From contig OX597816.1 in the NCBI GenBank assembly GCA_951406725.2, positions 93,558,001 to 93,622,000 on the forward strand: DNA of 64,000 nucleotides, given 5' to 3'. A model generated the notes under the pieces. That model did not search any database and was not told the DNA's origin. It worked only from the letters and a program-made list of their open reading frames with translations. Below are positions 3,435 through 63,650 of the stretch, one piece after another; position 1 is the stretch's first letter, and every line of letters starts with the position of its first letter. A program made the position numbers and the translations under genes. Source of the DNA: Octopus vulgaris (taxonomy: Eukaryota).

Positions 3435-3554
3435 TCCCATCTCTCTTTCCCTTTCTCAAGAAATTTAATATCAAAAGTAAAACGAACGTGACTACAAACG
3501 TGAGTCGAAACAAGAGCGAGCTGATTACTCTCCTAGTTTACAAAGCTTACATGT

Positions 3555-3700
3555 GTGGCTCACTTCCCAGCCACATGGTTCAGGGTTCAGTCCAAGTGCG
3601 TAGTAACTTGGGCAAGTGTCTTCTACTATAGCCACGAGCCGACCAAAACCTTGTGAGTGGATTTGGTACTCAGAAACGGAAAGAAGCCAGTTGTGTGTGG
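3555..3700 (+). mobile_element. SINE family B 5' fragment
   Basis: 'ccacatggttcagggttcagtcc...cttgggcaagtgtcttctactatagcc...ccttgtgagtggatttggt'. Includes a CORE-like 'cttgggcaagt' motif. Confidence 0.8.
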
Positions 3701-3702
3701 GA

Positions 3703-3769
3703 ACAGTCTCAAGTGTAACAGGCCGAAACTGTAGTGATAACTGGAATCATGACTGATGAATAGAAAGCC
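3703..3769 (+). ncRNA. Non-circularly permuted hammerhead ribozyme motif (degenerate copy) in a Penelope-like terminal-repeat fragment (about 3700-3870)
   Basis: acagt-C (3703-3708) pairs with A-ctgt of GAAActgt (3725-3732). tca (3709-3711) pairs with tga before CTGATGA (3753-3759). ggc/gcc forms stem II after a short insert. Confidence 0.55.
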
Positions 3770-4043
3770 AAGAATGTTCCATCCTGGTTTTCCTGTCCAT
3801 CCTTGTATCGTCCATCTGTCCGTATGTTTTCATTGTCGTCCGTTACATTCTTGTTCCATTTTATTATTTATATATATACATATAACGGCGTACGTACACC
3901 TTTTGCTCAGTTATATATATAACTGTTGCAATGGGTCCATAACTAGCGTCTCAGCAATAACCTTGGAGCCCTAGTAATCCGTTACAGAACTTACCTAGCG
4001 TACCTAATCGTTTAGATCACTTGTGAACTAAACCCACATAGTT

Positions 4044-4091
<48 letters not shown>

Positions 4092-4115
<24 letters not shown>

Positions 4116-4315
4116 ATCCAAACATGAAAACGCAAAGTGAAAACACAACAACGCGAGGACATGGAACAAGTATAGTGTTATTGGACGCTCAGGAAAGAAA
4201 AGAAAGGAGGATTTAATGTTTTGAGCGGAGCTCTTCGTCAGAAACATAGGAAAAGGAAAGATCCAAGGAAGAGAAGACGGAGAGAGAAAATCGCCAACCA
4301 TACACACGCGGTCAT
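4092..4315 (-). mobile_element. Short Penelope-like/retrozyme-type element bounded by (TA)n, with a decayed minimal type I hammerhead (4211-4245)
   Basis: The minus strand reads gttt-CTGACGA-a-gagc-tcc-gctc-aAAA-ca-tt-aaat, where GAAACG has become AAAACA by two CpG transitions. It shares a downstream 'cctgagcg' motif with the elements at 36030 and 62530. Confidence 0.7.
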
Positions 4316-4394
4316 ATATATATATATAAACTTACTTGGAAGTGAATGCATGGTGTTCAATTAAATAATAATATTAATAATATATATGTGTGTG

Positions 4395-4775
4395 TGCATT
4401 CTTGTCTGTCTCTTGTCCAAGCTTTCTTCTTCGCGTTCGCCACCTCACCTCGCTTAGGCTTAACAACCCTTCCTGTTTGTTTTAACTGTCCTGTTTTTGT
4501 TACAAATTTTGGCCCTCCGCAAAATCCCAAATTTTATTTAATTTGCTTTGCGGAAGCAACTGTTTTATTGAAGGCGTATCTTGTTGAATTGCTCGAAATA
4601 CGGATTAGAAAAACATCCGACAACTGATGAAGGGTCGGTCATTATGTTACTTGTCTTCTCTTCCATTTGTTTCTTTCGTTGTTGCAAAAAAAGTTCATAT
4701 TCCATGTATTGGTATTTCGTATCTCATGTTTTCGTTTTTTTATGTTTACGTTCCGTGGCGTCCTGTTCCCACATA
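4395..4775 (+). mobile_element. Penelope-like terminal-repeat element (same family as 8098-8400 and 4951-5198)
   Basis: Shares 'ctgtcctgtttttg...ccgcaaaatcccaaattttatttaatttgctttgcgg' with the reverse complement of 8270-8340. It is flanked by microsatellites and carries a permuted HHR. Confidence 0.7.
4575..4635 (+). ncRNA. Non-circularly permuted (pseudoknotted) hammerhead ribozyme motif
   Basis: cgtat-C | ttgttg | aatt | gctc-GAAA-tacg | 15 nt | cgacaa-CTGATGA-a-gggt. Stem III is cgtat/atacg, stem I is ttgttg/cgacaa, stem II is gggt/gctc. The core is complete and the predicted cleavage triplet is AUC. Confidence 0.75.
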
Positions 4776-4913
4776 TGCACATGTATATACGTATAGATGT
4801 AAGTATGTACATATACATATGTAAATATACATACATACATACATACATACATACATACATACATACATACATACATACATACATACATACATAGACACAC
4901 ACACATACATTTA

Positions 4914-4950
<37 letters not shown>

Positions 4951-4952
<2 letters not shown>

Positions 4953-5198
4953 GGGTACAGGGCGTCACCAACAGTAAACAACATGAAATACGAAAACAAG
5001 TGAGTTAAATGCGCAAATAACGAGAGAAAATGGAAAACAAGAGAAGTAATATAAAGAATGACCCTTTATCAGCTGTCGGCTACCCATTACGAGTAGTATT
5101 ACTTGTCTTGTTTTCCATTTTTCTCTCGTTAATTGCGTATGTAACTGATTTGTTTTCGTATTTCATGTTGTTCACAGTTGGTGACAACCTGTACCCAT
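4951..5198. repeat. About 100-bp imperfect inverted repeat (fold-back Penelope-like terminal repeat)
   Basis: 4951-5051 'atgggtacagggcgtcaccaacag...gaagtaata' is the reverse complement of 5097-5198. The spacer holds a mutated HHR core strand on the minus strand (ccgacagctgataaagggtc). Confidence 0.85.
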
Positions 5199-5323
5199 AT
5201 ACTACTAATATATATATATACTAATATAGTTTTTTTTACAGAAAAAAAATTAATCAAAAAAGTGGCAGCATATTAAAATACCTTTAAAGGCTGTTTATCA
5301 TATATATATATAATTTATATTAA

Positions 5324-5395
<72 letters not shown>

Positions 5396-5399
5396 CATC

Positions 5400-5432
<33 letters not shown>

Positions 5433-5459
5433 TGTATGTATGTATGTATGTATGTATGT

Positions 5460-6130
5460 ATATATCTGTGCGTGTGTGTGTGCATCTTTTTGTCTGTGTT
5501 TGTTCCTCACCACCACTTGACAAGTGTTTCAGGTGTGTTTACGACCCCTTAACTTGAAGGTTCGACAAAACAGACCGATAGATTAAGTACCCGGCTTAAA
5601 AAATAAGTCCTGGGATCGATTAATCCGACTGAAAATTCAAGGTGCTGCCCCAGCATGACCGCAGTCTAATGACTGAAACTAGTAAAGGATAGAGGATAGG
5701 ATTGAACCTGAAACTACGTTTCTGAGAAGTAAATTTCTTAACCATGCGTGACCGTATGGTAAAAAGCTTGCTTCCCAGCCACACAGTTCCGGGTTCAGTC
5801 CCATAGTGTGGCCACTTGGGCAAGTGTCCTCTACTATACCCTCGGGCTGATCAAAGCATTGTGAGTGGATTTGGTTGACAGAAGCTGAAAGAAGCTAGTC
5901 GTGTGTGTGTTTGTGTGTGTGTGTGTATGTTTGCCCCATCCCACCGCCATCGTTTGACAGCCGATGCTGGTGTGTTTGTCTCCTCGTAACTTGCTGGTTT
6001 GGCAGAACAGACCGACCGAATAAGTACTAAGCTTACAAAGAATAAGCTCTGAGGTCGATTTCTTCGACTAAAACCCTTTATGGCGGTGCTCCAGCATCGC
6101 CGCAGTCAAATGACTGAAACAAGTAAAAGA
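5460..6130 (+). mobile_element. Two SINE family B copies (3' half at 5460-5690, near full-length at about 5745-6130)
   Basis: Same head, body and tail motifs as 2857-3308. Confidence 0.8.
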
Positions 6131-6352
6131 ATGCTCTGTTCCTCTTATTTTACTTCTCTCTTTCAGACTCTCTCTCTCTATTATCCTTTTGTCTCATATA
6201 TCTTTTATTGTTTTACTCTTCTTCTTATGTTGTTTTTTCCTTCTTTCCCAATGTCGCCTTTCTCCACTCTCGTTCATAATCTCTTCCTAATAAGTTTTTT
6301 CTTCTACCATTGCTGACCACTCTCTCCTTACCTCCTCCCCATCCTCCTCCTC

Positions 6353-6388
<36 letters not shown>

Positions 6389-7417
6389 TTGACACTGTAA
6401 CACCATTCCTACGAGGTGGACAGACGACTCAGACTGTGTGTGTATTACTGTCCATCGTTTCTCTAATTTAAGTCTCTGTCTCAATCTCTGTCATAATCTC
6501 AATCAATATTCCTTTCTTTTCTCTTCCCTTCGTTTTGTCATTGCTAACTCCCATTCCTCTCTCTATCATTCATTCATTCATTCTCCCCCCCCCTCTCTCT
6601 CTCAACATTTATGCTCTGTTGAGCTTAAAATACTGAGAACCTCCGAAAAGCTAAGTTTGTATAGCAAGCAAACAACAAGTTAATATTGTAGACTAACAGT
6701 GTAGACAAAAAAGAAATTCGGTCAACTATGACAACGGTTTCAGAGCTCTAGTGAAGCTGCTACACACTTCCATATATAATCAGCAAAATTCCAAATAATA
6801 TCATGTCATACAGTTTCGAGATATTATGTCTTGTCCACTCACACTGCAAAGGCAAATGTTACACAAAAGAAAAAATTGTCATGTTTTATTTAAATACAAT
6901 AAGCAATAACAATAATAATAAATTTAAACCAGTTATTAACTGATAAAACATGACTTGTACGCAATTTATATCCGATGGCATTACACCTGTGTTAAAAAGA
7001 CTTTCTTCTATTTCTTAAGCAAAATAAGACAATGGAACAAATAATATAAGCCAGTTATTTATTGACAATACATGACATGGACAGATTGAAAACACTTTAC
7101 ATAGTATCGTAGTATAACAAGTATATTCAGTATTTTTAATGTTGATGACCAAGATTAATATTCCAGCTGACACTACCGACGCCAGAATTCGTTCTTCTAG
7201 CTACACATAGAATTAATGAGGTCTTCTTCGAGGTGTGACATTTTTTCTTGAGACATTTTTTCCTTGTTTCAATAGTTACCCGGATGGGAGTGTGAATGAT
7301 TTTTGAGAAAGTTTATATTAATAACATATACTGACTATGCTCGTATTAACGTTTGTGTCTGTGAAGGTTTTAAAGTGCGGACACATACATACATACATAC
7401 ATACATACATACATACA

Positions 7418-7449
<32 letters not shown>

Positions 7450-7450
7450 C

Positions 7451-8097
7451 GTATATTAAGAGATAACCACTAAGTGGACACCCAATATGCTAGAAAAAGA
7501 TCACCTACGATCCAACTACAAAGAAAAGAATGATCTCTAGAGAAATTCAGCAAACACTAGAACATAAGCGGGTAAGACAGATGAAAATATATAAAATACA
7601 GAATTAATCGTAGACCGGTTTCGTCAATTACCGATAATTACTTACGTAATTTCTCGTCCGTAGACTCTTCAGTACGATCGATCCAATTCAATATAATATG
7701 CAGAACTATACACTAGTTGTTCCTATTAAATTAGATGTTTGCATAGTTCTACCGATTACATTGAGGTTATTTTCAAATGTCTAAGTTCTGGCGCGCTAAA
7801 TTCCGGAAACAGTTCCGCAGTAGTTAATTCACTGCAGTTAATGTTGCAGGTTAGAGAACATAATTATTTAAAATTTAAATAATGAGGGTGATAAATTGAA
7901 TATTAATTTAATTAATATCAATTTAAAACCAGTAGCCTAACATATAGAAAAATCTGAAAAGTCAGTAAATTTGTAATACATGTGTATATTAAGGGATAAC
8001 CACTAAGTGGACATCCAATATGCTAGAAGAAGATCACCTACGATCTAACAACAAAGAAAAGAATGTTATTTAAATTTTAAATAATTATGTTTCTCTA
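7451..8097 (-). mobile_element. Penelope-like terminal repeat: partial tandem duplication plus a short inverted piece
   Basis: About 82-bp direct repeat 'gtatattaag.gataaccactaagtggaca.ccaatatgctagaa...' at 7451 and 7984. 8066-8097 is the reverse complement of about 7852-7885. Contains a type I HHR. Confidence 0.75.
7607..7678 (-). ncRNA. Type I hammerhead ribozyme with intact core and enlarged loop II
   Basis: The minus strand reads atcgta-CTGAAGA-gtc-(about 38 nt)-gac-GAAA-ccgg-TC-tacgat. Stem I is 6 bp, stem III is the palindrome ACCGGT, and the cleavage triplet is GUC. Confidence 0.85.
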
Positions 8098-8400
8098 GAG
8101 AACAAAAACATAGAAAACAAACTTTTTTCGAATAACAAAAAAACAAAAAACAAATAGTGAAACAAGACAAGCAACACAAAGAACATCTCCTTCATCAGTT
8201 GTCCTCTGTTTTATCCACTCCGCGTTTCGAAGGTAGGGACAAGACGCGACTTCGTTAAAACAATCCTTCCCGCAAAGCAAATTAAATAAAATTTGGGATT
8301 TTTTTGCGGAGAGTTAAAGTGGTACCAAAAACAGGACAGTATATTACATGTATTAATATATGATCGAACGCCACACATCCATTTTCAAGTAAGTTTTTTC
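8098..8400 (-). mobile_element. Penelope-like terminal-repeat element (family of 4395-4775)
   Basis: Reverse-complement homology to 4490-4700. Carries a permuted HHR. Confidence 0.7.
8187..8248 (-). ncRNA. Non-circularly permuted (pseudoknotted) hammerhead ribozyme motif
   Basis: The minus strand reads cgcgt-C | ttgtcc | ctac | cttc-GAAA-cgcg | 16 nt | ggacaa-CTGATGA-a-ggag. All three stems pair and the cleavage triplet is GUC. Confidence 0.8.
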
Positions 8401-8471
<71 letters not shown>

Positions 8472-8696
8472 GTCCTTTACACTTTATATTGACATTTCTG
8501 TGATAACGATCCCTATTGATCGATTTTTTCTTCTTCCTTTTATTTTTATCCCCCCTTTTTTTGCTTTCCTCTTTCTTTTCTTTTACGATCCCTTTTGATC
8601 GAAAACCAAAACCCCTTTTTTTATCCCCAAAAAGAAAAACTCTACCTTGTAATTTGTCCCGTCTGTGTGCAGCCCTGTGTGGCTAATAAAGAAACA

Positions 8697-59160: not shown

Positions 59161-59477
59161 CAAAGGCTATAAGAGGGATCGGGTTGAGCGGGTATAGAAA
59201 TTATGGGGTTAAGCAAATTAGACACGTCAAATAATTGATTCTATACCCGATCAACAGGATCCCTCTTATAGCCTTTCTTCACCTTGTGGAATTATATATA
59301 TATATATATATATTCTGGTGACGTTGATGATCGCCTGGGGCTAAATGCATCAGTAACACCCCCACCGCCCTGCCCTGTCCCTAGCCACATTCGGATGGCT
59401 AACGTCCCTTATGTTATGGAGCAGTTACTGTATATACCTCGTTTAGAGAATTATTATATATATATATATATATATAT

Positions 59478-59960
59478 AATAAAATACAAAAAGGGGCAAC
59501 AAAGCATCCAGATACACGATACAAAAGAACAAGGACGGGTCATTCGAAGCCTTTTATCTTCAGTCAAGAACCGGATCATCCTCGTAATCTCGGCTGATTA
59601 ATCTTGAGATTGCTTCAATCTGGCCAGCCCCAAAGAAAAACTAAGCTAAGAGCGTGGAAAAAAGCATCGAATGTATACGAAAACAAGGACAGAAAAACAG
59701 ACGATGTTACACAAAAATACAATAAAAGTAACAATAATAATAATAATGACAGGACATAACAACAGGCGACTTTCGACTGAGGACGAATGGAATTCAGCTG
59801 GCGTGTGTGGAAATGAAGCCTTACGGCAGAGGGAAGAATATCGATGTGGCAGTGACCGTGGTCAGACGCAAAAGGGCTAGCAGTCGGCCAATCGGTCACG
59901 TGAGAAGAGAAGAGAGAGAAAAAGAGGTACAAAGGAATTAAGGAGGGGGAGAAGAGAGAG
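59478..59960 (-). mobile_element. Penelope-like terminal-repeat element (family of 63345-63650)
   Basis: Reverse-complement homology over about 250 bp to 63380-63640. Bounded by (TA)n. Confidence 0.75.
59548..59613 (-). ncRNA. Non-circularly permuted hammerhead motif (GAAA mutated to GAGA)
   Basis: The minus strand reads gcaat-C | tcaaga | ttaatc | agcc-GAGA-ttac | 14 nt | tcttga-CTGAAGA-taaaa-ggct. Confidence 0.65.
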
Positions 59961-63340: not shown

Positions 63341-63344
63341 TGTC

Positions 63345-63650
63345 CTGCTATTACTATTCTCGTTTTTTATTTTTGTTTTTTGTATTTATATTCGTGTGGC
63401 ATCGTCCGTTTTTCTGTCCTTGTTTCGTATACATTCGATCCTTTTTCGAAGAAATCTAATGCTCGTAGCTTAGTTTCTCCTTGGGGCTGGCCGGATCGGA
63501 GCGATCTCAGGATTAATCAGCCGAAATTGCGAAGATGATCCGGTTCCTGACTGAAGATTAGAGGCTTCGAATGACCCGTCCGTTTTTTGTGTCGTCTCTT
63601 TATGTGTTTTGCGTTCTTGTCCCATTTTGTATTTTTTATATATAATTTTT
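63345..63650 (+). mobile_element. Penelope-like terminal-repeat element
   Basis: Homologous to 59478-59740 in reverse orientation. Ends at a TA/CA microsatellite and carries a permuted HHR. Confidence 0.75.
63501..63566 (+). ncRNA. Non-circularly permuted (pseudoknotted) hammerhead ribozyme motif with intact core
   Basis: gcgat-C | tcagga | ttaatc | agcc-GAAA-ttgc | 14 nt | tcctga-CTGAAGA-ttaga-ggct. Stem III is gcgat/attgc, stem I is tcagga/tcctga, stem II is ggct/agcc, and the triplet is AUC. Confidence 0.8.

Follow-up and report, generated by a model that had tools for sequence, protein, structure and literature searches.

Hammerhead ribozymes of type SGC, whose conserved blocks follow one another in the order S-G-C, were described by Eckert et al. 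2023 (PMC10085705). According to the available sections of that paper, monomers cleave at 0.007 to 0.19 per min, the SGC examples come from metatranscriptomes, and the only candidate in the genome of a known organism is of type GCS, from a bacterium. In the literature covered here, outside which most subscription papers lie, this was the only work on type-SGC hammerheads, and no genomic SGC was found in it. A 2026 paper mentions noncircular permutations merely in passing (PMC13725137), and the terms ribozyme, hammerhead, and retrozyme are absent from the main text of a 2026 octopus repeat annotation (PMC13282606). For Penelope-like elements (PLEs), the accessible part of Craig 2021 (bioRxiv 2021.04.23.441226) describes searches with canonical and relaxed hammerhead descriptors and reports Naiads without hammerheads. 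Here, we analyzed 64,000 nucleotides (nt) of the Octopus vulgaris genome (GenBank assembly GCA_951406725.2, contig OX597816.1, positions 93,558,001 to 93,622,000 of the forward strand; hereafter, the window), in which a first-pass annotation had noted two copies of a permuted hammerhead of a family called alpha. Our results suggest that this scrambled-order motif is present in many thousands of copies within small mobile elements of the genome.

Both copies are type-SGC, that is, noncircularly permuted, hammerheads with short linkers. Their blocks run from stem III/UH/stem I through stem II/GAAA/stem III to stem I/CUGAUGA/stem II, an order that no circular permutation of the classical hammerhead can produce, and the hammerhead core (CUGANGA, GAAA, and UH) is present in each. 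The copies lie where the first-pass annotation had put them, with all strands placed (Table 1), and its claim that they sit in homologous elements was confirmed (73% over 240 nt; E = 1e-30). A strict SGC descriptor matched the window twice; local shuffles gave no match in 59/60 cases and one match in 1/60. No Rfam match passed the gathering threshold, either in the window or in 3 PLE/alpha loci, and none of the 43 weak matches in 3500 to 8500 was to a hammerhead. Classical hammerhead types I to III were ruled out by the S-G-C order together with the absence of an Rfam model match; the window contains 3 matches to the classical order CUGAUGA-N-GAAA, with 1.7 expected on average by chance.

The motif is abundant well beyond the window. 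A pattern of G box and C box at SGC spacing, blind to family and restricted to exact boxes, had 19,374 matches across the 2.8-Gb genome, compared to 408 for the reversed control. Copies 1 and 2 belong to alpha subfamilies A and B, respectively, which are ~88 to 90% identical internally and 70 to 76% identical to each other; searches with the two copies returned 3,548 and 5,091 genome candidates. Two further families represented in the window, beta and gamma, gave 4,449 candidates (best 95 to 98%) and 2,539 candidates, and still other SGC families were found in the flanks of sampled loci. Across 72 intact copies, the N16.2-U-H triplet was AUC, AUA, GUC, GUA, or AUU.

We annotated 16 seed families, dropped one (H, seed copy truncated), and used the remaining 15 for covariation; 5 of these rest on 34 to 43 copies each and 10 on a single seed copy. 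Pairing was observed in 56/60 cells of stem III, 73/75 of stem I, and 53/60 of stem II, levels reached by 0, 1, and 261, respectively, of 20,000 strand swaps made within clades. Stems I to III thus have the backing of covariation, stem II being the weakest. A fourth covarying helix, which we call P0, forms between the 5′ flank and the G-to-C linker and extends stem III (CUGUUUU/AAAACAG in A, CUGUCU/AGACAG in D, CCGGAUC/GAUCCGG in beta, and CCAAUU/AAUUGG in gamma). When the same best-run search was applied to swapped strands, the observed P0 was matched in 0/20,000 swaps across all families and 5/20,000 within clades. Neither of two other helices sought in the same way stood out: the I-II helix of the type reported by Eckert et al., in which the G-C linker pairs with the 3′ flank, was reached by 12,483/20,000 swaps (best run of 3.93 for cognate strands versus 3.98 for swapped ones), and an extension of stem II with the 3′ tail by 8,649/20,000. 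In 12 hand-picked alpha copies, 92.5% of the cells in the four helices were paired, with 15 double changes; none of 500 shuffles reached this level, and slid controls gave 42 to 57%. Judged from these comparisons, the motif is a real and well-supported structured RNA, which bears out the earlier identification of a permuted hammerhead. Once P0 is counted, the motif starts ~15 nt further 5′ than the earlier boundaries had it, and constructs cut at those boundaries could fail for that reason.

The junction between stem III and P0 differs between clades. Beta-like copies have a 3-nt bulge of variable sequence and then GA (42/44 copies) opposite another GA (41/44); in alpha-like copies, GAGUAGA (15/26) faces CGAAG (18/26). 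Kink-turns (k-turns) consist of a 3-nt bulge followed by tandem G.A/A.G pairs. The beta-clade loop appears to fit this pattern and the alpha-clade loop the bulged-G (loop E) pattern. The P0-stem III hairpin was part of the minimum-energy fold in 5/6 family majority sequences (A, B, E, beta, and gamma). Separately, two potentially inactive folds were seen in the alpha B majority sequence: the CCUUC before G12 is fully complementary to GAAGG, a pairing that takes up G8 and A9, and CUUCG can pair with the 5′ CGAAG.

Covariation is blind to whether strands pair in cis or in trans, and the blocks might act between tandem units or between molecules in a nested classical topology (e.g., S1-C1-G2), with SGC describing the order in the DNA only. 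Partial tandems of the element do exist, and metazoan PLE hammerheads are thought to be dimeric according to the available part of PMC4209133. Such an arrangement would require helices of 4 to 6 bp to span ~800 nt, whereas P0 and stem III form locally and the short spacings are fixed in a way that suits intramolecular geometry: in the 72 intact copies, the cut lies 14 to 17 nt from G12 (search range, 9 to 22 nt) and GAAA lies 24 to 26 nt from the C box (search range, 20 to 30 nt). Monomeric SGC ribozymes are also reported to cleave in the accessible sections of PMC10085705. We therefore regard pairing between units as very improbable and treat the motif as a monomeric ribozyme below.

If cleaved RNA were reverse transcribed, the resulting copies would start just 3′ of the cut, and this prediction was checked against the 5′ ends of truncated copies. 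Among copies picked by pattern (57 of 60 had a usable reference), 14/57 end within 19 nt of G12, compared to ~5.6 expected (P = 0.002). We also searched for junctions as (TA)5 lying no more than 30 nt away from the G box, a design that covers both sides of the cut about equally and reaches ~−14. For beta, 100 listed of 2,349 overlapping matches represent 23 loci; 22 of these have junctions at +1 to +16 and one near −11 (binomial 1e-5), with three at +1, four at +3, and six at +10 among the matches listed. For alpha A/B, the 100 listed of 748 matches represent 33 loci, of which 32 have junctions at +1 to +15, the remaining one being a degenerate copy beyond the cut (binomial 4e-9). Reverse-strand matches in beta numbered 364 for the window spanning the cut versus 102 for the next 30 nt downstream, the two search anchors being equally common in sampled loci (9 and 9, by eye). 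Expressed per nt, the junction density in beta was ~22 immediately 3′ of the cut, compared to 3.4 farther downstream and 1 on the upstream side. This step is best accounted for by RNA that ended at the predicted bond, the end then being trimmed through microhomology joining. The ends of truncated copies may thus be a fossil trace of reverse-transcribed cleaved RNA, which suggests self-cutting in germ cells. They also lend support to the cut sites proposed earlier (after 4580 and after minus-strand 8243) and, with the family-level covariation, to the earlier proposal of selection on RNA structure.

The same step could in principle arise if the fold were real and barely cleaved in vivo, with junctions piling up through stalling of the reverse transcriptase (RT), (TA)n microhomology, and fold-back of the complementary DNA (cDNA) removing the stem III/P0 ends. 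Junctions do prefer AT/TA microhomologies (+3 and +10 in beta), the set of copies selected by tail has no peak, and slow cleavage has precedents in the available parts of two papers, in the published SGC rates (PMC10085705) and in the poor in vitro activity of minimal PLE hammerheads (PMC4209133). AT microhomologies exist 5′ of the cut too, yet only 2/56 loci end there among the matches listed; moreover, junctions at +1 to +16 are ~6 to 7 times as dense as in the adjacent downstream paired region, a region that RT has to unwind first, and the edge coincides with the predicted bond in each of two clades whose stem sequences differ. Fold-back of the cDNA could add to the upstream gap; the peak itself is unexplained by it. 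Taken together, these data make a barely cleaving fold distinctly unlikely, and we retain cleavage before reverse transcription as the explanation of the step.

Homology around the motif extends from about −600, with a ragged 5′ edge, to about +350. The 3′ ends of A copies mostly lie 200 to 330 nt past the cut, where a TA-rich tract merges into (TA)n, and inverted fragments adjoin many copies, including both in the window. Most copies are fragments shorter than one unit. Head-to-tail partial tandems in alpha A, alpha B, beta, and gamma define units of ~740 to 840 nt that contain no open reading frame (ORF); tandem units each with a hammerhead were found at loci L163, L164, L165, and L166, and self-repeats were found in beta and gamma loci. 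The 5′ truncation, inversions, partial tandems, and ends in AT-rich targets are all traits of a PLE-derived nonautonomous element. An E-box-like CACGTG(A), a candidate internal promoter element, stands 250 to 310 nt upstream of the motif in all five families examined (A, B, D, beta, and gamma); a PLE of this genome likewise has CACGTG in its 5′ region (L151, 1620 and 1670). The alpha unit (e.g., L163, 5284 to 5610) carries a GTAAGT donor-like site, a long pyrimidine tract, and a CAG acceptor-like site upstream of the ribozyme; these sites are reminiscent of retained PLE introns, and many insertions stop exactly at the donor-like site. No spliced genomic copies were found among 11 acceptor and 17 donor contexts. 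Contigs of three presumed RNA runs and one other run, aligned to an alpha unit outside the repeat at 5546 to 5603, gave neither molecule ends nor a listed joint across the putative intron and say nothing about expression either way. At L239, a B copy has an inversion junction in its stem I, the outcome expected if the template was switched where the ribozyme is self-complementary.

We then considered which protein could mobilize these units. Starting from an RT fragment next to L020, we identified a young, long-ORF PLE family of Neptune type (L064, L151 to L160, and others), represented by dozens of copies with 99 to 100% amino acid identity over the RT piece, open frames of up to 782 amino acids, inverted partial tandems, and (TA)n ends. 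The autonomous PLEs of this genome encode RT, a CxxxxCxxC linker, and GIY-YIG; they are young and Neptune-type by published description. The terminus of the L020-linked family has a classical-order U3-A8-like motif (by eye), with an SGC motif nearby at 1/30 loci. A GIY-YIG search of 30 loci gave 29 PLE loci with a C-terminal endonuclease and 1 probable host gene; the match at L187 presumably belongs to a host exon of SLX1 type. A classical U3-A8 minimal hammerhead lies 3′ of the ORF at 18/30 loci, and a convincing SGC at 0/30. Several Neptune-type families (L176 to L199) have the U3-A8 core variant UUGANAA, 420 to 1080 nt after the stop codon. In searches by tblastn of 119 and then 30 and 30 motif-centered loci, no upstream sense PLE ORF was found, the matches being antisense or downstream; we read the PLE fragments adjoining SGC copies as nested insertions in (TA)n. 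The SGC units are likely nonautonomous Penelope-type retrozymes; the GIY-YIG loci carry the classical form in 18/30 cases and a convincing SGC in none, so the PLE protein that mobilizes the units is a putative one.

Alternatively, the units could be pseudo-long terminal repeats (pLTRs) of an as yet unfound autonomous element, such as a Naiad, or could be moved by a long interspersed nuclear element (LINE) instead of a Neptune PLE. The available part of Craig 2021 (bioRxiv 2021.04.23.441226) reports (TA)n bias and cephalopod Naiads, some copies are flanked by LINE-like ORF fragments, and the units share no sequence with the Neptune pLTR beyond the CACGTG motif, a result that covers the Neptune-type loci sampled, with Naiad and Penelope/Poseidon clades outside the sample. 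The tandems in the four families nevertheless show complete units without an ORF, and the tblastn searches placed no sense PLE ORF upstream. We consider a pLTR or LINE origin unlikely. At L007, L015, L099, and L247, SGC copies adjoin LINE ORF fragments, probably via shared microsatellite targets; we take these fragments to be of the restriction-like-endonuclease type.

Overall, it is probable that the motif is a monomeric, double-pseudoknotted SGC hammerhead carried by nonautonomous Penelope-type retrozymes of the non-long-terminal-repeat (non-LTR) kind, in units of ~0.74 to 0.84 kb. The transcript would cut itself after N17, and a PLE RT/GIY-YIG protein, probably from a Neptune-type family here, would nick (TA)n, with reverse transcription starting within the TA-rich tail of the element. 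On a cleaved template, RT would run off at the new 5′ end and leave a copy beginning 1 to 16 nt 3′ of the cut; if the template was uncut or had been religated into a circle, RT would read through and produce longer or more-than-unit copies. P0 prolongs stem III by way of the k-turn-like (beta clade) or bulged-G-like (alpha clade) loop and leads the chain into stem I; the kink may fold P0 back so that it braces the tip of stem I, taking the place of the I-II helix seen in published SGC ribozymes. With less assurance, we lean toward the further view that the genome retains direct traces of ribozyme-cleaved RNA as the template of germline retrotransposition and holds a monomeric SGC family with its own k-turn/bulged-G brace in tens of thousands of copies.

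Several observations weigh against this interpretation. With regard to the fold, the families are related, so the permutation values given above for the stems are not independent probabilities; the D majority sequence and a short window of copy 2 of the 4555-4650 type fold otherwise; ViennaRNA, which was used for the folds, has no pseudoknot scoring; stem II is weak in B, with one Watson-Crick pair and two G-U pairs; and stem II of gamma has A.C at 10.1-11.1. With regard to the junctions, positions were read by eye from the 100 listed matches per search, and the peak lies mostly at +7 to +15 and not at +1, exactly +1 being seen in 4/56 loci among the matches listed. The tail-selected set, which is small, includes duplicates, and is rich in tandem partners (153 matches, most of the first 91 being microsatellite noise), shows no peak, with 3/49 at +1 to +20 and 5/46 at −19 to 0. 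No autonomous partner sharing sequence with the SGC units was found. Finally, for an Anolis PLE studied in vitro, the available part of PMC11167929 reports that cleavage is dispensable for insertion, that no reads end at the cut, and that the ribozyme needs protein. In favor of the interpretation, the same work shows PLE protein nicking AT-rich DNA in vitro and reverse transcription beginning internally from there.

Comparison with their families qualifies what had been said of the two window copies. They had been described as fully compensatory in all three stems. Three double changes hold at the family level (stem III has two of them and stem I the third), whereas the change in stem II is confined to copy 2: ggag was seen in 1/30 B copies and was absent from the 100 B matches listed by a core-blind search (by eye), B-family stem II being GGGA/CUUC (G-C, G-U, G-U, and A.C). 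The stem I strand ttgttg of copy 1 stems from a short deletion (4/29 A copies), the family form being UUGUCG/CGACAA. The core, called invariant, is so in the two window copies; across the family, A13 of GAAA is substituted in 9/35 B copies versus 1/116 in A, D, beta, and gamma (Fisher 7e-6). By eye, A13 was substituted in 22 of the 100 listed of 146 B matches (T 10, G 8, and C 4), on several backgrounds. This hotspot also shows indels in B, where the context is UUCGA; families with CUCGA or GCCGA lack it, and UUCGA elsewhere in the elements shows no evident counterpart. RT may have misread a modified A (an m1A-type signature), or uncut mutants may have been copied preferentially. The two copies had also been put forward as the best candidates for an activity assay, which they are not: both are old, with nearest relatives at 91% (copy 1) and 89% (copy 2), and have private changes. 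Copy 1 has the stem I/linker deletion and a private P0 mismatch.

Table 1. Positions of SGC hammerhead strands and repeat units in the 64,000-nt window; cuts and pairings are predicted
Feature	Position	Strand	Remark or basis
Copy 1 core strands	IIIa 4575-4579, C17 4580, Ia 4581-4586, IIb 4591-4594	+	
Copy 1 core strands, continued	GAAA 4595-4598, IIIb 4598-4602, Ib 4618-4623, CUGAUGA 4624-4630, A 4631, IIa 4632-4635	+	
Copy 1 unit, alpha subfamily A, 5′ truncated, TA-rich tract at end	4396-4837	+	86% to reference unit from L012
Upstream hairpin common to A and B	4512-4557	+	RNAfold of both window copies; shared sequence
Copy 1 P0, 5′ strand	4560-4566	+	Partner 4610-4616, one private mismatch
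Copy 1 block S: stem III 5′ strand, AUC site, stem I 5′ strand	4575-4586	+	Predicted cut 4580/4581
Copy 1 block G: stem II strand, GAAA, stem III 3′ strand	4591-4602	+	
Copy 1 internal-loop strand GAUUAGA and P0 3′ strand	4603-4616	+	GAGUAGA in most alpha families
Copy 1 block C: stem I 3′ strand, CUGAUGA, extra A, stem II strand	4618-4635	+	
Decayed inverted 3′ fragment of alpha unit adjoining copy 1	4811-5081	−	68% to reference unit; C box CTGATAA
Copy 2 SGC core	8187-8248	−	GUC site, predicted cut 8243/8242
Copy 2 strands	IIIa 8248-8244, C17 8243, Ia 8242-8237, IIb 8232-8229, GAAA 8228-8225	−	
Copy 2 strands, continued	Ib 8204-8199, CUGAUGA 8198-8192, IIa 8190-8187	−	
Copy 2 unit, alpha subfamily B, both ends truncated	8101-8341	−	88% to reference unit from L053
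Copy 2 P0, 5′ strand	8256-8263	−	Partner 8213-8206, 8 bp
Short inverted piece of unit's end (GTAAGT region), abutting copy 2 5′ end	8340-8405	+	
Gamma-family SGC repeat	3702-3884	+	Predicted cut after 3708; CUGAUGA 3753-3759
Older beta-clade SGC repeat, GAAA box altered	59472-59960	−	
Young beta-family SGC repeat, intact core	63341-63648	+	Predicted cut after 63506

A separate repeat family, represented at 4120 to 4310 on the minus strand of the window, carries a classical type I minimal hammerhead (CUGACGA, 3- to 4-bp stem II, and GAAA). The window copy has G12 changed, and intact copies of the same family occur in L157 and L163. Classical and permuted retrozyme-like families are found side by side in the same genome.

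These findings would bear on several questions. Ribozyme censuses built on the three circular types would miss a large class, whose many diverged families offer covariation and candidates for assay. Eckert et al. did not settle how the permuted chain closes in three dimensions, and P0 with its k-turn is a candidate answer. As to what hammerheads do in PLE transposition, a step at the scissile bond in the 5′ junctions would be in vivo evidence for the use of cleaved RNA as a template, and the same analysis is applicable to any PLE family. If the interpretation is correct, then, more speculatively, PLE clades labeled ribozyme-less may conceal permuted ribozymes that standard descriptors miss. 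What appears new here is an SGC hammerhead in an animal genome with a peripheral brace unlike that of published SGC ribozymes; its cleavage, expression, and mobilizing element we infer from genomic sequence.

Set against the available sections of the relevant papers, the octopus motif combines features of several known systems. Like the SGC ribozymes of Eckert et al. (HRIMA-1 and variants; PMC10085705), it has the S-G-C order, a full core, a short link between stems I and II, and one extra base after A9. It differs in that HRIMA-1 and its variants pair the G-C linker with the 3′ flank in a helix, whereas P0 of the octopus motif joins the 5′ flank to the linker; moreover, the octopus extra base is A in alpha or a 5- to 6-nt insert in the beta clade, which falls outside the CUGAUGAUG/CUGAUGAG descriptors of Eckert et al. 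The minimal type I hammerheads of PLE pLTRs (PMC4209133) share the extra nucleotide between 9 and 10.1, the G10.1-C11.1 pair, a location 150 to 330 nt from the element's 3′ end, the (TA)n context, and inversions; they differ in their circular C-G-S order and vestigial stem III. In common with non-LTR retrozymes (PMC7229834; Li et al. 2026), the octopus elements are noncoding hammerhead units present as monomers and tandems and likely moved by PLEs, and their unit length is inside the 51- to 972-bp range of non-LTR retrozymes (bioRxiv 10.64898/2026.07.22.740005). The published non-LTR retrozymes were, however, defined and searched as type I, whereas the octopus units carry an SGC hammerhead with a stable, extended stem III.

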